From IMG/VR virus record IMGVR_UViG_2565956717_000009, positions 1 through 37,482 of that record: a stretch of 37,482 nucleotides of DNA; one strand, written 5' to 3'. The position numbers and the translations under genes were made by a program. The notes beneath the pieces were generated by a model that was not told where the DNA came from, searched no databases, and worked only from the letters and a program-made list of their open reading frames with translations. The stretch is from a virus. Taxonomy: Duplodnaviria; Heunggongvirae; Uroviricota; Caudoviricetes. Below are positions 4,480 to 37,482 of the stretch, piece by piece; position 1 is the stretch's first letter; each line of letters starts with the position of its first letter.

Positions 4480-6636
4480 TTACTCCTGTGCCATTCCGCT
4501 TAGCGATGCCACAATTCCAGCTCTTGCTAAACGCTGGAACTCTTCGTTTCCTAGTGCCTCGCGTATTGCCTTTACGGCGGCCTTATTTGCCATAAATCTG
4601 CGTTCCGCCGCCGCTAATGCACCATCACTTGCCCCAACCTTAACTGCCTTTGTTGCCTCTTGAACAGCCTTTTCAATAGCGTAACGACCACTGCGGGATG
4701 CAGCTAACTTTTCTATCGTCCCTTTAGCTATAGATCCAGAAACAGCCCCTACAACACCGCCAACAATCCCTCCACCAGTAGTACCAACAATAGCCCCTGA
4801 TGTTGAATTGCCTATTGCATTGAGAACTGTCATGACAGCTTTTGGCAGTCCTTGCTCAAGAGAGTTAATTGCCGGTATAGAGCGCCCCGTATGCTCTACA
4901 TATCGCAGTGGTCTGGTTGCTGCTCTGGCAAGGTCGCTGTATGCCCTAGCAATCTTACCCATTTCTGGCGAGTGCCTACTAATGGCAGTAATGTTCTGCG
5001 GCGTAAGGATCGACGCTATATGGAATACGCCAGCAGACTCTGATTTACCGCCACGCACCCCTTGCGATACCGCATCTTGTAATATTGATGCAATTGCAGG
5101 AGATCGCTCAGACTCTGGCAGCGCGCCAATAATCTGATGAAACTTTCCTGTCCCACTTTTTGATGAATTTTGCAAGGCTTTAATACCATCAGTGACTAAC
5201 TGATCAGTTGCAAGGTTTCTAAACGCTGCTTCAGCCTGTTCTTGTGCTGTAAATCTTGCTTTTGACAGATCATTAGCTTTTTGCCAGTCATCAAGAAAAC
5301 CGCCATTTTGAGCCATTATGCGCATATCTTCCGTTGCTGCATCACGAAGCTCCGCCATGCGCCTTGCCGTATTTGCCTCACCAGACCTTATATACTTCTG
5401 CTCAGCGTCAGCAAGTTTACTTCGCCATGCCTTCATGGCATCAAACGTGATTCCTTTTTTACCAGTTTTAGCATAAGCAGATGCAAATTGTTTCATCTCA
5501 GGAGTTAGCGGCATGCCAGCCAAAATATCACCCTGAATTGTAGCGTTCAGGTTTGACATTCTGGCCTTTGCGTCAGGCATCGTGGAGCGGACGCTATCCC
5601 ATGCTGCCTTTTCTGAGTTCTTCATTTTATCAATACTTGCTAAAACCCTTTGTTTTATGGCTGCACTTTTTTCTGATGCAGATCCAGCCTCAGCACCAAG
5701 TTCATCAAGTGCTGAGTGGAATTTCGACTGTATTTCACTAAAAGCCCTAGTATGTGCATCCTGAACAATTCCTGGTTCGGATGCCAATATCCCTTCGGCT
5801 TGTGCAATTCCACGACTTCCAGATCGCATTCCTGGTGTTAATGCGTTTATATCAATTCCAGCAGACTCAGCTGCTTTTGCTACATCTTCGGACACATTAG
5901 CGGCCTGACTGGCAATTGACTGACGCCCAGCACCTGACTTTGCCATCCTGGAAACATCATTAGCAGAATTCAGTGCTGCACCACCAAGAGCCTGTGAAAC
6001 CTTTGGCGCAATAACGCGCCCGACACCTGAAAGAACGCCTTGAGCACCAATATTGATACCACCGTTAATGGCAGCATTTTGTGCAAAATCACCCTCCTGA
6101 TTTGCAGCATCAGCAAGAGAACCGGCAATCATGTTTCCTGCGGAACCGATGTCTCCTGCGAGCTTTGCTGGCGCTCCAGCAGCTTTTGCCGCTGTGCCAA
6201 TTGGCAGGAGATACCCACCAATTGTTTCACCGGCTTGTGCGTAAGAGTCTGTCGGTCGATCGACTGGACGATAGACATCATCCAAAACCTTGGGGCCACC
6301 AAGCCCCTGGCTGATTGCATTAATCAGACTTGCGCCACCCTGCAATACGTCAAATGGTATGTTTACCAGACCACGACCAGCCTGTTCTGCAATTTGCCCT
6401 GCACTTTGACCACCAGTGAGCCAATCGCCAGCTTGTTGCATCAATGATGGTTCTTCTTTCTGCTGCTGAGGCGGATGGTATGCTGCATAAAACTGATCTC
6501 TTGCTTCAGCCCATTTGTCACCAGCCTTAGGGGCAACAACCTCATCAAAATATTGCGCTTGAGCCTGTGCTTTCTGTTCTTCAGTTAACGCCTGATACTG
6601 TGGAGAGGCGATAACATCTTTCCATGCTTTAGCCAT
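4480..6636 (-). CDS. Ejection (DNA transfer) protein, P22 gp16-like
   Basis: 718 aa, Ala/Gly/Gln-rich; position and order 7-20-16 immediately upstream of the immI region as in P22. Confidence 0.7.
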
Positions 6637-28815: not shown

Positions 28816-29025
<210 letters not shown>

Positions 29026-29113: not shown

Positions 29114-29830
<717 letters not shown>

Positions 29831-29837
29831 CACGTAA

Positions 29838-30275
29838 ATGATTAAAGAACGTATTTCTTATATCATTCCGATTGCGATGGATGAAGGCAACCCAGTAACT
29901 CCAGTTCTTATCTATGAAATGGATAAAGACTCCCATGAAGTGGATCTATCATTTGGCGCTTTTTTTATCGGCCTTAAGGCTACAAAAAAATATTCCATAG
30001 GCATTGAGGTTTTCAATGCTCAAGAAATACCGATACCAATTGACACAAAACTGTACTCCAACCATAAGTTTTTTACGGTAGCAGAAGCCAACGATGGAGA
30101 AACCATCGTATCAACTTCTATGAGAATTAACTTCCCAAGGGTGAAAATTATCAAGCCTGGGATATTCGAAGTTAGAGCATCACTGGTTAATCCTGATAAA
30201 GGCGAAGTAATTGATGTAAAAAGTTCGTTTTTTGACGTGAAGATAACAGGATCGGTTCGCGATGAGTTTAGATAA
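29838..30275 (+). CDS. Hypothetical protein, first gene of the cI-downstream (rex-position) cassette
   Basis: 145 aa, starts 7 nt after the cI stop; visibly A+T-rich; no recognised motif. Confidence 0.6.
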   Translation: MIKERISYIIPIAMDEGNPVTPVLIYEMDKDSHEVDLSFGAFFIGLKATKKYSIGIEVFNAQEIPIPIDTKLYSNHKFFTVAEANDGETIVSTSMRINFPRVKIIKPGIFEVRASLVNPDKGEVIDVKSSFFDVKITGSVRDEFR

Positions 30276-30633
30276 CAAGGTTGCTCAGCTTCGTCCAAAT
30301 CAAAACATATCTCGCCCAATTGGACACTATTCCACTGATGATGCATACTCACGGCATGCTGGAGGAAACGGCGGAGGTAACATGCTTGAGGCTAGAGTTG
30401 CAAAGCTAGAGTCTGATGTTGAATACATCAAGCGCGATCTCGCTGAAGTAAAGTCAGATATAAAATCTGTAGATTCTCGTCTGTCAGGTATTGAGACAAG
30501 CATTAGCTCAGCAAAAATCACCATCAAGGCATCTGCGGTCGTTGTCAGTTTCGTGTTCGCATTTTGCGCCTACATTTTTGGAAGTTATGTTTCCAAAATC
30601 CTTGATGCCTTAAACGGACTCGTTCTTAAGTAA
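30262..30633 (+). CDS. XhlA-like tail-anchored membrane protein (coiled coil + C-terminal TM), second gene of the rex-position cassette
   Basis: 123 aa; Gly-rich N-terminus, heptad-like LEARVAKLESDVEYIKRDLAEVKSDIKSVDSRL, C-terminal hydrophobic ASAVVVSFVFAFCAYIFGSYV; 14-nt overlap with upstream gene. Confidence 0.6.
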   Translation: MSLDNKVAQLRPNQNISRPIGHYSTDDAYSRHAGGNGGGNMLEARVAKLESDVEYIKRDLAEVKSDIKSVDSRLSGIETSISSAKITIKASAVVVSFVFAFCAYIFGSYVSKILDALNGLVLK

Positions 30634-31134: not shown

Positions 31135-31518
31135 ATGACACGCAGAACTCAGTTCAAAGGCAATTCACGTTCTCGTCGTCGTGAGCGTTTAAAGGCAAAG
31201 GCATTAGCTAACGGCGTACTGGCCCGCGAAGAAGCAATAAGTTCAGAAGTATTACACCGCCCTACTCTAAGCAGAGCGCAGATTCAGGCTAAAGGTACTC
31301 ACGAAACGCCTGAGCGCATAGAAGACGCTAAGCCAATTAAGTTCATGGCACAGGACGTGATCTGGCAACAGAAAGAATACAGACGCAATCTGGAGAGAGC
31401 GGCCATTGTGTACGCGAATGAGTTTGGACATAAGCAACCAGAAACTGGTGTATGTCTTCCAAATGTAGCTCTTTACGCAGCAGGCTACCGGAAATCAAAA
31501 CAACTGACGGCGAGGTAA
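31135..31518 (+). CDS. N: Antiterminator N (P22 gp24-like)
   Basis: 127 aa; Arg-rich N-terminal motif GNSRSRRRERLKAKA; C-terminus ...LPNVALYAAGYRKSKQLTAR resembles recalled P22 gp24; GGAGG RBS. Confidence 0.75.
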   Translation: MTRRTQFKGNSRSRRRERLKAKALANGVLAREEAISSEVLHRPTLSRAQIQAKGTHETPERIEDAKPIKFMAQDVIWQQKEYRRNLERAAIVYANEFGHKQPETGVCLPNVALYAAGYRKSKQLTAR

Positions 31519-31520
31519 TT

Positions 31521-31892
31521 ATGGGTCAGGAAGAAAAATATGAGCTTAAAAAGCTCATTGGAGAAGACGCCATAGAAGAAATTGCAGCATTAACAACAGC
31601 TATAAAGAATATTAGGTATGCGCTAAATACGCTTATCTCCTCATGCGACAAAAATAGCAGGGAATTTTTGATACTTGGCGCAGCTCTAGGAATAGTTGAT
31701 GCGGCAACGCTTCACCTAATTACTCATGACGATATTCTTATTGAGCCGTATGAAACATTACTGCTTGTCAGGAAAAAAATGGCTGATGCCGCAGCAAATG
31801 GAGACCTTCAACTTTACATCGACTTAAGGAAAGTATTAAGGCGAATGGTCAGAACTGAAGGAGATATCCCCCCTGACAAAATAAGGGGGTGA
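31521..31892 (+). CDS. Hypothetical protein directly after N (sieB/ral position)
   Basis: 123 aa from ATG 31521, 2 nt after the N stop; A+T-rich; no recognised motif. Confidence 0.55.
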   Translation: MGQEEKYELKKLIGEDAIEEIAALTTAIKNIRYALNTLISSCDKNSREFLILGAALGIVDAATLHLITHDDILIEPYETLLLVRKKMADAAANGDLQLYIDLRKVLRRMVRTEGDIPPDKIRG

Positions 31893-32489: not shown

Positions 32490-32564
32490 GCGCGGCTTTA
32501 TCGCATACCAATGATGCTTCACCAGAGGCATTTTCGTTATGCAATCAAACAGAAGGAGTTACCC

Positions 32565-32699
32565 ATGATGCACTTTCAGCTCGCGGGTAGCGGCGTCATG
32601 TCCGCTTTCTACCCGCACGAATCTGAATTATCACGCCGAGTTAAACAATTAATCAGAGCAGCAAAGAAACAACTGGAGGCCTTATGCGCAATGAAATAG
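32565..32699 (+). CDS. cIII: CIII-like protein (FtsH inhibitor)
   Basis: 44 aa from ATG 32565 with AAGGAG RBS at 6-nt spacing; amphipathic ESELSRRVKQLIRAAKKQLEAL resembles the CIII core helix. Confidence 0.55.
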   Translation: MMHFQLAGSGVMSAFYPHESELSRRVKQLIRAAKKQLEALCAMK

Positions 32700-32836
32700 C
32701 CATTAATCACCAGATGCTTCGTGCTGCACAAAACAAAGCAGTAATAGCCAGATTTATTGGTGATTCCAAAATGTGGCTTGAAGCAAATAAAGCGATGAAA
32801 TCAGCTATCAACCTTCCATGGTATCGCAGGAAATGA
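32684..32836 (+). CDS. kil: Kil-like small protein
   Basis: 50 aa, below the ORF-track cutoff; GGAGG RBS; ...IARFIGDSKMW... resembles recalled lambda Kil; overlaps the cIII end. Confidence 0.45.
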   Translation: MRNEIAINHQMLRAAQNKAVIARFIGDSKMWLEANKAMKSAINLPWYRRK

Positions 32837-32940
32837 GTTTTACAGATAACTGGTCAGACGAAGAGTTCATTCGTCAGATGAACAAAATGCTCAATCAGCA
32901 CAAAGAACAGGAGAAAGATGATGATTCTGACTCTGAATGA
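32833..32940 (+). CDS. Small acidic hypothetical protein, ATGA-coupled to the Kil-like gene
   Basis: 35 aa (MSFTDNWSDEEFIRQMNKMLNQHKEQEKDDDSDSE); could be non-coding. Confidence 0.25.
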   Translation: MSFTDNWSDEEFIRQMNKMLNQHKEQEKDDDSDSE

Positions 32941-33229
32941 TAAGCGTGAAATATCGCAAATAATCGCAAGTTTTACTGATGAAGATTACGAACGAATCAA
33001 CAGTGAAGTTGATCGCCTCTGCAAACGTTGCGACCCAATAAGCGAAATGCTTCGCTCATATAAACCAGATGAACACACTAAGGACGCTATCGACTGGCTG
33101 GAAGATGCTGACTGTAACTATCAGGAAAAAGCCGCTGAATGGTTCTGGGATGCAATAACCGAAAGAGTTAAGGCTGAATATGCCTTCGCAATATTCAAAC
33201 GCAGACACATTTATGGAGAAGCAGCATGA
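32918..33229 (+). CDS. Hypothetical protein immediately upstream of recT
   Basis: 103 aa; AGGAGA RBS; 4-nt overlap with the recT start. Confidence 0.5.
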   Translation: MMILTLNDKREISQIIASFTDEDYERINSEVDRLCKRCDPISEMLRSYKPDEHTKDAIDWLEDADCNYQEKAAEWFWDAITERVKAEYAFAIFKRRHIYGEAA

Positions 33230-34128
33230 GCAATATCGTTGAATTCGTTAAACAGCAGGAGCAGTTATTCTGCGGAGCATTGACTGAACAGACGGTGACA
33301 TGGGCTAAGGAAAGCCAGTTTGCAATTCAGTATTTCCAGAAAAACGATTACCTGGCTAAAACAGCACTGGCAAACCCAACCAGCGCACAGAACGCCATCA
33401 TCAATGTTGCGGCGATCGGCATCACCTTAAACCCGGCCAGCAAACTTGCTTATCTAGTTCCGCGCGACGGCATGGTTTGCCTTGATATCAGCTATATGGG
33501 ATTACTTCACCTTGCGCAATCGACAGGTTCTATTAAGTGGGGGCAATGCAAACTGGTGTACTCAAACGACACTTATGAATCAAATGGCCTTGATTCAGCA
33601 CCAACCCACAAATACAACGCATTTGGTGAGCGAGGCTCTATTGTTGGTGGTTATTGCACGGTTAAAACAGCAGATGGTGACTACCTGACTGAAGAAATGA
33701 GTCTGGCAGAAATTAAAGCAGTGGAAGCAACGAGCAAGGCAAAGAATGGACCGTGGAAAACATTCTGGGAAGAGATGGCGCGTAAAACAATAGTTAAACG
33801 CGCCAGCAAATACTGGCCTAAAGCCCAGCGACTGGATAATGCCATTCACCTGCTTAACGAAGATGAAGGTATGCATCAGGAACCAGTTATGCCGCACAAA
33901 TCAGAGGAAGATATCCACGAAGATGAACGGAAACGCCAGCAGGAAATAACGGATAAAGCACAACTTCTTTGTGATGAAATGGCCCAGGCTGAAAACATGG
34001 ATGATTTGAAGCGATATTTTGCAGAAGCATATCGCCTGACATCTGGAATGAAATTGCAGCAGAACGTACAAGCCATTTACATAGAATGCAAAGCGAAACT
34101 GGAGGTTGCCAGTGAGCAAACTATATGA
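33226..34128 (+). CDS. recT: RecT-family single-strand annealing recombinase
   Basis: 300 aa; ...KNGPWKTFWEEMARKTIVKRASKYWP... matches recalled E. coli RecT (NGPWVTHWEEMAKKTAIRRLFKYLP). Confidence 0.9.
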   Translation: MSNIVEFVKQQEQLFCGALTEQTVTWAKESQFAIQYFQKNDYLAKTALANPTSAQNAIINVAAIGITLNPASKLAYLVPRDGMVCLDISYMGLLHLAQSTGSIKWGQCKLVYSNDTYESNGLDSAPTHKYNAFGERGSIVGGYCTVKTADGDYLTEEMSLAEIKAVEATSKAKNGPWKTFWEEMARKTIVKRASKYWPKAQRLDNAIHLLNEDEGMHQEPVMPHKSEEDIHEDERKRQQEITDKAQLLCDEMAQAENMDDLKRYFAEAYRLTSGMKLQQNVQAIYIECKAKLEVASEQTI

Positions 34129-34594
34129 AATAGCCAATGAATACGCAAAATTGATGGATTCAGATTTAGAGCCAGAGATGATTGCTGACACAATAGAAGG
34201 CATGGAAGGAGAATTTACCGATAAAATAGAGCAACTTCTCGCCATTATTAAAAATGAATCTGGTTATGCTGAACGCCTCAAGGACGAGGCAAAGTCACTG
34301 AATGAACGAGCCGCAGTAATTCAAAATAAGATTGACAGCATTATGGCGTATATAGCGTCATCGCTTGAAATGGTTGGCAAGAAAAAGATTCGAGCAGGTA
34401 TCCACCAGGTAACAATCCGCAAACCGTCAGAAACTGTAGAAATCATCGACTCAAGCGCCCTTCCTCAAGAATACGTTGAGTTTGAAACGACAATTAAAGC
34501 CGACAAACTGGCAATCAAACACCAACTAAAAGCAGGAATAAATATCCCCGGCGCTCAACTCAAAGTTGGGAAACCTTCACTTCTTATCAAATAA
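34112..34594 (+). CDS. Gp157-family-like protein (recollection), GTG start
   Basis: About 160 aa, coiled-coil N-terminus; GGAGG RBS 6 nt before GTG 34112; overlaps the recT 3' end. Confidence 0.45.
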   Translation: MSKLYEIANEYAKLMDSDLEPEMIADTIEGMEGEFTDKIEQLLAIIKNESGYAERLKDEAKSLNERAAVIQNKIDSIMAYIASSLEMVGKKKIRAGIHQVTIRKPSETVEIIDSSALPQEYVEFETTIKADKLAIKHQLKAGINIPGAQLKVGKPSLLIK

Positions 34595-34605: not shown

Positions 34606-34920
34606 ATGAAAAAGACTCCATGGGAGAAATGGGAAGTCGATTTCTTGCGCGAAGTAGCGGCGACAATGCCAGTTGAAGTTATCGCTGAAAAACTGGAAAG
34701 GACTGAAAAAGCAGTAATGGCGAAAGCAACAAGGATTGGCGCTGACATTGTTAGCCGACTTCGTGGAAGACGATGGACAAGAGCCGAAGTATCACTTTTC
34801 GGTAAGTTCTCCGCAGAAGAAATAGCAATTGCAACCTGCCGCTCAATTTATTCAGTAAGAGCTATGCGATACAAGCTAAAAAAACTCGATGAAGAAAGAG
34901 CAGGCATACGAATAAATTAA
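34606..34920 (+). CDS. Hypothetical protein
   Basis: 104 aa; basic; possible HTH-like segment (WTRAEVSLFGKFSAEEIAIAT); family unknown. Confidence 0.45.
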   Translation: MKKTPWEKWEVDFLREVAATMPVEVIAEKLERTEKAVMAKATRIGADIVSRLRGRRWTRAEVSLFGKFSAEEIAIATCRSIYSVRAMRYKLKKLDEERAGIRIN

Positions 34921-36259: not shown

Positions 36260-36874
36260 ATGACCACTATTACCAAAGAACGTATTGAATTGTTCATTAA
36301 AGATCCGCTTGAAAACGGGCTTACTCGTGGCGAACAAATGGAACTGGCACGAATTGCACTGGCATCACTGGAACGCGAACAGATTCGCCACGAGCATGCC
36401 AAATGGTCTGACTCCACATTTGGCTGCGTTGGCCCCATTGGTCCGCTGAAACATCTCTCAAAAGAGGCTCTGGAAGCCGCAGCCGAACCTGACGATCTCA
36501 GCGAGTGGGCTGATATGCAGTTCCTGTTGTGGGATGCACAGCGCCGTGCTGGTATCAGTGATGCTGAAATTACCGCTGCTATGGAAGATAAATTGAAGAT
36601 CAACATGAAGCGCCAGTGGCCTGAACCAAAAGATGGTGAGCCTCGCTTGCACATTAAAGAACCCGGCAACTCTCCGGTAACTCCGGATGGTTGGATAAGC
36701 TGTAGTGAGCGAATGCCAAGCGAAGAAGATGTTTTGGTTTATTGCTCAGACACAAAAGAGCAGATGGTAGGGTTTCACAAAGGTAAAGGGTTATTTCAAT
36801 TCTTTTACATGAATGGTGTTGAGGGGGTATGTGAGCCGTCACACTGGATGCCGCTACCAGAGCCTCCACTTTGA
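36260..36874 (+). CDS. DUF550/DUF551-type prophage protein (recollection)
   Basis: 204 aa; C-terminal ...PDGWISCSERMPSEEDVLVYC...HWMPLPEPP resembles DUF551. Confidence 0.5.
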   Translation: MTTITKERIELFIKDPLENGLTRGEQMELARIALASLEREQIRHEHAKWSDSTFGCVGPIGPLKHLSKEALEAAAEPDDLSEWADMQFLLWDAQRRAGISDAEITAAMEDKLKINMKRQWPEPKDGEPRLHIKEPGNSPVTPDGWISCSERMPSEEDVLVYCSDTKEQMVGFHKGKGLFQFFYMNGVEGVCEPSHWMPLPEPPL

Positions 36875-36970
36875 AAGCGAAGCTTATACATATCTTTTAC
36901 ATCAGCAATCTATTGTTAATCTCCAATCAATGTTACGTTGTCATCTCACTCATGCTTTGGAGGTAGTGAT

Positions 36971-37150
36971 ATGTCTTGTCCAAAATGCGGTTCTGGAAAT
37001 ATTGCAAAAGAAAAAACAATGCGTGGATGGTCTGGTGATTATGTGTGCTGCGATTGCGGATACAACGACTCTAAAGACGCATTTGGAGAGCGTGGTAAAA
37101 ACGAGTTTGTTAAAATTAATAAAGAACGCGAAGGCAACGAAAAAAGCTAA
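36971..37150 (+). CDS. Zinc-ribbon protein
   Basis: 59 aa from ATG 36971 with GGAGG RBS at 7-nt spacing; CPKCG...CCDCG pairs. Confidence 0.5.
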   Translation: MSCPKCGSGNIAKEKTMRGWSGDYVCCDCGYNDSKDAFGERGKNEFVKINKEREGNEKS

Positions 37151-37281: not shown

Positions 37282-37482
37282 ATGCAACACGAACTACAAC
37301 CTGATTCACTGGTTGATTTGAAATTCATCATGGCTGATACTGGCTTTGGTAAAACCTTCATCTACGACCGGATTAAGTCCGGCGACCTGCCTAAAGCCAA
37401 AGTTATCCACGGTCGAGCAAGATGGTTATATCGTGACCATTGTGAATTCAAAAATAAGCTCTTAAGCCGCGCCAATGGGTAA
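37282..37482 (+). CDS. AlpA/excisionase-family small DNA-binding protein
   Basis: 66 aa; ...LVDLKFIMADTGFGKTFIYDRIKSGDLPKAKVIHGRARW... resembles AlpA/Xis-type winged-helix proteins; stop is the last codon of the window. Confidence 0.55.
   Translation: MQHELQPDSLVDLKFIMADTGFGKTFIYDRIKSGDLPKAKVIHGRARWLYRDHCEFKNKLLSRANG

Follow-up and report, generated by a model that had tools for sequence, protein, structure and literature searches.

A nuclease-less RecT–Gp157 recombination module of the HK140 type in the early-left operon of a lambdoid prophage

Gene content of the recombination module

The DNA analysed here is the whole stretch IMGVR_UViG_2565956717_000009 (37,482 nucleotides (nt); hereinafter the window). 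It is a lambdoid prophage with lambda-type immunity (cI, 29117–29830; cro, 28816–29016). Its early-left (pL) operon lies on the plus strand and spans N (31135) to a torI-type excisionase gene (37282–37482). The subject of this study is a recombination module within that operon, centred on recT, which encodes a single-strand annealing protein (SAP). Specifically, five genes are packed tightly after cIII and kil: a 40-amino-acid (aa) open reading frame (ORF), a 103-aa ORF, recT, gp157 and a gene for a 104-aa basic protein. N, cIII and kil lie upstream of the module, while the ea genes and xis lie downstream. The segment 32818–34920 is a pL-operon homologous-recombination module of the HK140 type, at the place of lambda gam-bet-exo and P22 arf-erf-abc1-abc2. 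Its features and their boundaries are as follows.

32511–32699, plus strand: cIII, the upstream boundary marker of the recombination module (PF08134, E = 4e-30, ORF residues 20–56); true start probably ATG 32565
32684–32836, plus strand: kil (PF06301 Lambda_Kil, E = 1.7e-20)
32818–32940, plus strand: 40-aa acidic ORF (phrog_17766, E = 8e-16; phrog_2123, E = 5e-10; residues 6–25 only)
32918–33229, plus strand: gene for a 103-aa acidic helical protein (phrog_3486; HK140 gp42); likely start ATG 32921
33226–34128, plus strand: recT, which encodes a single-strand annealing protein (SAP sequence type 4 in Zheng et al. 2025)
33871–34128, plus strand: C-terminal tail of RecT, residues 216–300, of the Gp157-associated type (BLASTP and alignment among RecTs)
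34112–34594, plus strand: gp157 (Sipho_Gp157; ORF from 34106 or 34112 to 34594; PF05565, E = 2.7e-36; phrog_253, E = 9e-53)
34606–34920, plus strand: gene for a 104-aa basic protein with a repeated helix-turn-helix-like motif (phrog_323, E = 2.8e-20)
37282–37482, plus strand: torI-type excisionase gene, with which both the early-left operon and the prophage end (TorI annotation in E. coli VE-F5)

An earlier reading of the same DNA, made from its letters alone (the sequence-only reading), described a RecT preceded by a 103-aa protein and followed by an overlapping Gp157-family protein, and these gene calls hold in searches of Pfam and PHROGs. RecT matches PF03837 over residues 31–208 (116.3 bits against a cutoff of 24; E = 1.7e-33), phrog_148 (E = 1e-91) and the Protein Data Bank (PDB) RecT entry 7UB2 (E = 7.6e-5). 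It is 87.5% identical to HK140 RecT, and its core is nearer to that of phage EC.P3 (98.7%). Gp157 matches PF05565 from end to end (profile positions 1–162 of 162; 125.5 bits against a cutoff of 28.6). Because the homologues of Gp157 are 160 aa long, the gene probably starts at GTG 34112 behind GGAGG (GGAGG-N6-GTG), which would give a 17-nt overlap with recT. The stop codon of the 103-aa gene overlaps the start of recT (GCAGCATGA).

No exonuclease gene accompanies recT, in agreement with the sequence-only reading. Specifically, Pfam and PHROGs searches of the operon ORFs from N to torI find no YqaJ, DUF3799/RecE, lambda Exo or other nuclease family, a PADLOC search of the pL ORFs finds no exonuclease, and no match in the window is found by tblastn with seven nuclease queries (one lambda Exo, three YqaJ proteins and three DUF3799 proteins). 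The nin region, on the other strand, contains only NinB, RusA and YbcO. Two escapes had been foreseen, a compact exonuclease among the flanking ORFs and an exo gene just past the end of the window. The former is ruled out by the Pfam, PHROGs, PADLOC and tblastn results, the hidden Markov model searches of the neighbours giving no nuclease family. The latter is ruled out by the position at which the window ends: its last base is the final base of the torI-like stop codon, and in a related prophage of E. coli VE-F5 the TorI gene is the last phage gene and is directly followed by host dsdC, so the operon does not continue past the window. The complete HK140 genome, which carries the same cassette, has no annotated exonuclease and is negative with the same tblastn set. 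The integrase is not at the torI end of the prophage.

A two-component recombinase is recognised by a YqaJ/lambda-Exo or RecE/DUF3799 gene beside the annealing protein gene, and such a neighbour is found neither in the window nor in any of 170 related contigs. The locus instead has the make-up of a nuclease-less lambdoid Rec module, namely a contiguous set of early-left genes with an annealing protein gene among them but no nuclease gene. It also contains a recognised anti-RecBCD-type gene of putative activity, as the Gp157 protein is 98% identical to that of HK140, which the survey lists as MuGam type.

The cassette is found at 90–99% DNA identity in phages 683R2, Louie, Kapi1, 611R6, HK140, mEpX1, Gally and others, and HK140, mEpX1, Kapi1, Louie and Gally, which have the same arrangement, are plaque-forming or inducible. 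Among 80 IMG/VR viral contigs retrieved via Gp157, RecT, Gp157 and the 104-aa gene occur together in all 80, the 103-aa gene occurs in 76, and Exo, YqaJ or DUF3799 occurs within 5 kb in none. A further 90 contigs carry Gp157 of the HK639 or phiA005 type; RecT accompanies Gp157 in 86 of them and nucleases are absent from all 90. The nuclease-less RecT–Gp157 arrangement is found in 166 of these 170 sampled contigs.

The arrangement is also present in the literature. A survey of lambdoid recombination modules (Zheng et al. 2025) reports that the nuclease is absent in 84 of 246 modules, lists HK140 as SAP-4 plus MuGam without nuclease and of ‘P22 functional type’, and counts two Rec genes, RecT and MuGam, in the HK140 type (PMC12315714). 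The module of Gally was named recT-gam-abc1 by the De Paepe laboratory (PMC9928086). The idea that a RecT without an exonuclease is unusual finds no support, since nuclease-less modules are common and the exact HK140 type is already catalogued. In viable phages the cassette is conserved and intact in this form, with an annealing protein and no phage exonuclease. The feature is a known, ordinary module type among lambdoid phages; we regard its assignment to the nuclease-less HK140 type as nearly certain, and the annotation should read HK140-type Rec module, a routine genome feature, not an anomaly. Two points go beyond the published catalogue, namely the partner-specific RecT tail and the 103-aa slot family. 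The survey gives no role to the 103-aa gene, contains no analysis of the RecT tail and explicitly leaves partner-domain shuffling unexamined (PMC12315714).

The RecT tail and Gp157

The RecT proteins of 14 phages were compared, the core being defined as residues 1–215 (51–87% identical to the window core). In seven the partner is Gp157 (HK140, Dewey, HK639, Aeromonas phages phiA005 and 4_L372X, a metagenomic contig and the window itself), and in seven it is an exonuclease (phi80, Ss-VASD, Aeromonas phage 56, Vibrio phage 1.198.A, ENT47670, Midgardsormr38 and Yersinia phage YenM_12). The last ~85 residues of the window RecT are common to all seven Gp157-partnered RecTs, with identities of 42–93% and BLASTP E values of 1e-14 to 1e-55. 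The same residues have no BLASTP match (E ≤ 10) in any of the seven exonuclease-partnered RecTs, whose cores are 51–82% identical to that of the window and whose tails are 17–22% identical (six aligned). For example, the cores of Aeromonas phages phiA005 (with Gp157) and 56 (with Exo) reach 82% and 75% identity with the window core, respectively, but their tails are unrelated.

The C-terminal domain of lambda Bet is homologous to five of the seven exonuclease-partnered tails (E = 4e-6 to 1.5e-39) and has no match to the window RecT. The window RecT is consequently an annealing protein that does not carry the Bet-type exonuclease-binding C-terminal domain, and a Pfam search of its tail gives no match. 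The further 90 contigs show the same pattern, with the Gp157-type tail and core together in 86 and a Bet-type tail in none. Within Gp157-type modules, the divergence of Gp157 correlates with that of the tail with r = 0.95, versus r = 0.71 with that of the core. According to a published structural study, the Bet C-terminal domain was crystallised bound to lambda Exo, and the same domain also binds E. coli single-stranded DNA-binding protein (SSB; PMC6393309).

The protein annotated ‘RecT’ in ENT47670 (3809–4738 of its locus) is chimeric: a core with 48% identity to the window RecT is joined to ~76 final residues that share 72% identity with the C-terminal domain of lambda Bet. The gene of the chimera adjoins that of an Exo 87% identical to lambda Exo. 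As judged from these alignments, ENT47670 is a clean natural case of domain shuffling between the RecT and Bet lineages.

Because the type of the tail switches with the downstream gene, we think it somewhat probable that the RecT tail is a module specific to the partner and that Gp157, in the place of the exonuclease, is the protein to which RecT is matched. Two considerations weigh against this partnership: the tail DNA directly adjoins gp157, so mere physical linkage could give the same correlation, and the tail might contact a host protein instead, as the Bet domain also binds SSB. The best-supported alternative, which we nevertheless rate as unlikely, combines both. It holds that Gp157 is only an end-protecting or anti-RecBCD protein acting independently of RecT, that the tail contacts a host factor such as SSB, for which the reported binding of SSB besides Exo by the Bet domain would be the precedent (PMC6393309), and that the correlation comes from adjacency and joint inheritance. 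The tail coding sequence adjoins and overlaps gp157, and an exchange that brings in gp157 would easily carry the tail along. Moreover, Mu gam-like and orf157-like genes stand upstream of Erf and Sak4 in Firmicutes, so that Gp157 is not specific to RecT (PMC8093625). However, exchange occurred at the junction of core and tail within recT, not at the gene boundary, in all 14 phages, in 86 of the 90 further contigs and in 80 of the 80 close ones. In addition, unrelated tails on cores up to 82% identical are what matching of tail and partner predicts, as for the solved contact between the Bet tail and Exo. We therefore retain the partnership of tail and Gp157 as the preferred reading.

PHROGs labels phrog_253, the family of Gp157, ‘Mu Gam-like end protection’, and the lambdoid survey classes this Gp157 type as a MuGam-type anti-RecBCD protein (PMC12315714). 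The direct signal is marginal. Specifically, the Mu Gam profile PF07352 scores 15.5 bits against Gp157, below its cutoff of 28.3 (E = 0.018), although the match is in register over 115 residues. HK639 Gp157 matches the profile with E = 0.0038, two other Gp157 members do not match it, the reciprocal match is also absent, and hhalign of Gp157 with Mu Gam gives a non-significant probability of 0.85%. The neighbourhood supports the link, as the gene after gp157 is related to Mu gp9, which adjoins Mu gam. Gp157 is best filed under PF05565, and the description ‘Mu Gam-like’ is no more than likely. In the AlphaFold2 (AF2) model, with a predicted local distance difference test (pLDDT) score of 81, Gp157 contains a long helix (residues 21–88, 68 residues) and a hairpin; several charged residues and a histidine are invariant in its C-terminal half. 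The viral locus search retrieved no relatives of the Gp157 of the metagenomic contig.

The protein encoded after Gp157 (104 aa; isoelectric point (pI) 10) follows it in all 80 close loci. The 104-aa protein, P22 Abc1 and Mu gp9 all match phrog_323 (E = 2.8e-20, 1.3e-23 and 5.2e-29, respectively), and the 104-aa protein matches Mu gp9 by BLASTP with E = 5e-5. A similarity to P22 Abc1 was sought by BLASTP and none was found; the shared PHROG is the sole link between the two, and the regions of phrog_323 that they match, 93–190 for Abc1 and 145–269 for the 104-aa protein, overlap only in part.

The slot before recT and the 103-aa protein

The 103-aa protein belongs to a family of acidic helical proteins of ~100 aa, which at 50% identity falls into about 50 clusters in a set of 1.8 billion representatives. 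Its pI is 4.7 and its net charge is −8; the pI values of the family range from 4.4 to 5.5, an acidity like that of GamL and Gam. Pfam, PADLOC and PDB sequence searches with the 103-aa protein give no match. An alignment of 36 family members offers no conserved stretch, and a viral locus search with it retrieved nothing. Its AF2 model contains five helices with a pLDDT of 77, which is of moderate confidence given the shallow alignment.

In every context examined, the 103-aa gene opens the recombination module and comes immediately after cIII or kil. What follows differs between genomes: RecT and YqaJ in two genomic contigs, ENT47670 and Midgardsormr38, a DUF3799 exonuclease and RecT in two contigs and phiEt88, and RecT and Gp157 in modules such as that of the window. 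In SEN22, which encodes a 103-aa protein 95% identical to that of the window, a DUF3799 exonuclease and a 189-aa protein follow. Because the following genes vary and include nuclease genes, the 103-aa protein is not an exonuclease substitute, nor is it bound to one RecT subfamily.

The same slot is occupied by known inhibitors in related phages. Dewey carries a true lambda Gam (PF06064, E = 1.5e-50) between kil and RecT–Gp157, and HK639, phi80 and Ss-VASD carry GamL before recT. Among 166 contigs with sequence upstream of recT, the slot contains the 103-aa gene in 82, Gam or GamL in 70 and no recognisable gene in 10, and the 103-aa gene is never found together with Gam or GamL (0 of 166). The distance from the slot gene to recT is typically −6 to +6 nt.

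The slot may also contain forms intermediate between the known families. In 10 IMG/VR contigs, the single slot gene is matched by both lambda Gam and GamL queries, and phi80 GamL has a marginal Pfam Gam match (E = 0.085), which suggests that sequences bridging the Gam and GamL families exist. The phi80 record describes GamL as ‘toxic without Mog’ and places a gene for a 322-aa ‘anti-toxin for Gam’ just upstream of it (locus 1222–2479). No gene like the ‘anti-toxin for Gam’ is found beside the 103-aa gene of the window.

Homology of the 103-aa protein to known inhibitors and cofactors was sought and rejected in each case. For Gam, BLASTP gives a hint of E = 0.001 over 23 residues, which did not stand up: hhalign against a Gam sequence gives a probability of 16% over 25 columns, and no Pfam profile, PF06064 included, matches any of 36 family members. 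For GamL (PF28165), hhalign gives 6% and 0.2% against single GamL sequences, and a comparison of the 36 family members with 26 GamL sequences gives a probability of 0.2% (E = 0.32). For Abc2, BLASTP gives E = 2.9 and the charge is opposite (pI 4.7 versus 8.9). Homology to Arf was likewise rejected. With the model as query, Foldseek finds no PDB entry with E < 1, and the Gam entries 2UUZ and 5MBV are not retrieved.

Because the 103-aa family and Gam/GamL are mutually exclusive in the same slot, the 103-aa protein is a candidate inhibitor of a host nuclease, with RecBCD as the probable target. By analogy with the other occupants of the slot we give this role an even chance; in this reading an analogous inhibitor would have displaced Gam or GamL non-homologously. 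Several points weigh against it. The failed comparisons with Gam, GamL, Abc2 and the Gam folds are among them, slot occupancy and acidity are circumstantial evidence, many of the sampled loci are close relatives and not independent events, and a second inhibitor beside an end-protecting Gp157 needs explaining, yet Dewey and HK639 do pair Gam or GamL with Gp157. The suggestion of the sequence-only reading that the neighbours of RecT are host-nuclease modulators or a non-canonical partner is thus upheld in part. Gp157 is classed as anti-RecBCD and the 103-aa protein occupies the slot of Gam and GamL; on the other side, comparisons of the 103-aa protein with Gam, GamL and Abc2 reveal no homology, and the link between Gp157 and Mu Gam is marginal.

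In the main rival reading, the 103-aa protein would assist or regulate the recombination genes, perhaps as a cofactor resembling Arf or as a factor required for coupled translation of the first of these genes. The 103-aa gene is translationally coupled to whichever recombination gene comes first, the conserved E-A/V-A at the C-terminus of the protein falls on the ribosome-binding site of the next gene and on its ATGA overlap, the small acidic cofactor Arf occupies the corresponding place in P22, and the protein has neither homology nor a fold match to known inhibitors. However, a cofactor is not expected to exclude an inhibitor, while the 103-aa gene is never found alongside Gam or GamL. Furthermore, it precedes nuclease genes as readily as very different RecT subfamilies and is not matched to one annealing protein. 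We therefore consider an accessory role improbable, and prefer that of a candidate inhibitor.

The distribution of Chi sites (GCTGGTGG) bears on an anti-RecBCD function. The window has no Chi site on either strand in 37.5 kb, where about one is expected by chance, and Chi sites are also absent from ENT47670, SEN22 and phiEt88, in which the 103-aa protein is the only candidate inhibitor; for ENT47670 and phiEt88, our tests found no other recognisable inhibitor. HK140 has four Chi sites on one strand. A lack of Chi sites is reported for phages that carry an anti-RecBCD gene, and SEN22 is listed under ‘no anti-RecBCD’ with Chi counts of 0/0 (PMC12315714). The count in the window fits an anti-RecBCD function of its own, but one 37-kb sequence alone says little.

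In SEN22, the 103-aa and 104-aa proteins flank the DUF3799 exonuclease and the 189-aa protein (SEN22_31, 4630–5199 of the locus), and no annealing protein is recognisable. The 189-aa protein matches phrog_11517 and has no Pfam match. Table 1 of the survey gives the SEN22 module type as SSB+, nuclease+ and no SAP (PMC12315714). The 189-aa protein is presumably what the survey counts as SSB, and it could be an unrecognised annealing protein.

The 40-aa ORF in front of the 103-aa gene has a pI of 4.2 and is found in 76 of the 80 related loci. One of the PHROGs matched by its first ~20 residues bears the label ‘recombinase’, and in the HK97 record two small genes beside erf are also labelled ‘recombinase’. 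The ORF has a 12-residue BLASTP match to P22 Arf (E = 0.007). It is probably a mosaic-exchange junction, that is, a scar between kil and the recombination module.

Proposed mechanism and comparison with known systems

The best explanation as a whole, an HK140-type module with the mechanism set out here, appears to us fairly probable. RecT, by its family membership, would anneal single-stranded DNA. The single strands would come from host enzymes or replication forks, as P22 and general knowledge suggest. Gp157 would stand in the place of the exonuclease, matched to RecT through its last ~85 residues, and this tail would give way to the Exo-binding C-terminal domain of Bet in every module in which a lambda-type Exo comes next. 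Should Gp157 be Mu Gam-like, its dimer would cap double-strand ends, exclude RecBCD and position RecT there. The 103-aa protein, translationally coupled to recT, would neutralise or redirect a host nuclease, probably RecBCD. The joint proposal that Gp157 is a docking partner of RecT, making a third kind of two-component phage recombinase, and that the 103-aa protein represents a fifth class of inhibitor of RecBCD or host nucleases, is a tentative one that we put below even.

Two further explanations concern the missing nuclease. The first, in which Gp157 would be a small nuclease, so far unrecognised, that provides the end resection for RecT, is suggested by the location of Gp157 exactly at the exonuclease position of the sister modules, by the covariation of the RecT tail with it and by the invariant charged residues and histidine of its C-terminal half. 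It is nevertheless very improbable: neither Pfam nor PHROGs gives a nuclease family match, the modelled fold appears unlike known nuclease folds, and the literature and PHROGs class Gp157 with the end-binding Mu Gam. The second, that the module is a decayed remnant whose exonuclease gene was deleted, draws on relatives with RecT cores 48–82% identical and a downstream Exo gene, and is scarcely credible, as the ORFs are all intact and tightly coupled, the same layout is present in viable phages and in 166 of 170 contigs, the RecT tail is dedicated and conserved and not an orphaned Bet type, and neither Exo-gene fragments nor a remnant of a Bet-type tail, both looked for between recT and gp157, are present.

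If the partnership of tail and Gp157 is true, a RecT tail matched to an end-binding protein would explain recombination of double-stranded DNA by a phage without its own resection enzyme, and recombineering tools independent of a cognate exonuclease would be possible. If the candidate role of the 103-aa protein is true, a new family of host-nuclease inhibitors would extend the set of proteins guarded against by bacterial abortive-infection systems, and 103-aa inhibitors would fill ‘no anti-RecBCD’ gaps in the catalogue, e.g., that of SEN22. Both points would be of modest importance if confirmed.

Other genes of the window were noted in passing. On the plus strand at 29838–30633, two ORFs lie directly 3’ of the lambda-type cI, at the position of lambda rexA/rexB. 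They encode proteins of 145 aa (phrog_5893) and 123 aa (phrog_6136), the latter with a coiled coil, a C-terminal hydrophobic segment and weak XhlA/CorA-like matches, and may be prophage-expressed exclusion or defence genes. A 146-aa ORF (31452–31892, plus strand; phrog_7374) shares 67 nt with the 3’ end of the N gene, in a different frame; its start is probably internal, because the phrog_7374 profile aligns from residue 24 onwards. Towards the end of the operon, a gene at 36260–36874 (plus strand) encodes a dATP/dGTP pyrophosphohydrolase domain (PF04447) fused to DUF551, and a Lar-like zinc-ribbon ORF (36938–37150) follows it.

The module is closest to those of HK140, mEpX1 and Gally, which have an identical gene set and order at the same position between kil and the ea/xis genes. 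The identities to HK140 are 99% for the 103-aa protein, 87.5% for RecT, 98% for Gp157 and 99% for the 104-aa protein, and the difference from the HK140 type is allelic only, residing in the RecT core that is nearer to EC.P3.

HK639 and Dewey have the same RecT core, a Gp157-type tail, a Gp157 61–95% identical to that of the window and no nuclease. They differ in the slot gene, which is GamL (PF28165) in HK639 and Gam (PF06064) in Dewey, whereas that of the window belongs to the 103-aa family. The lambda Red module and those of phi80, Ss-VASD and ENT47670 share with the window the succession of a small acidic slot protein, an annealing protein and a third gene. The RecT cores of phi80, Ss-VASD and ENT47670 are 48–73% identical to that of the window, and ENT47670 even carries a member of the 103-aa family; however, the third gene of the window encodes Gp157 and not YqaJ/lambda-Exo, and its RecT tail is not of the Bet type.

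The arf-erf-abc1-abc2 module of P22, the classic nuclease-less precedent, resembles the window in having an annealing protein without a phage exonuclease at the same pL position, accompanied in P22 by small proteins that act on host RecBCD. Further likenesses are the PHROG that the 104-aa protein shares with Abc1 and the faintly Arf-like start of the 40-aa ORF. The differences are that the annealing protein is Erf in P22 and RecT in the window, that P22 has no Gp157, and that the window has no Abc2 homologue. In Mu, gp9 adjoins Gam, as in the window a gp9-like helix-turn-helix protein adjoins a protein annotated as Mu Gam-like. The order is reversed, no annealing protein is adjacent in Mu, and Gp157 of the window scores below the threshold of the Mu Gam profile.

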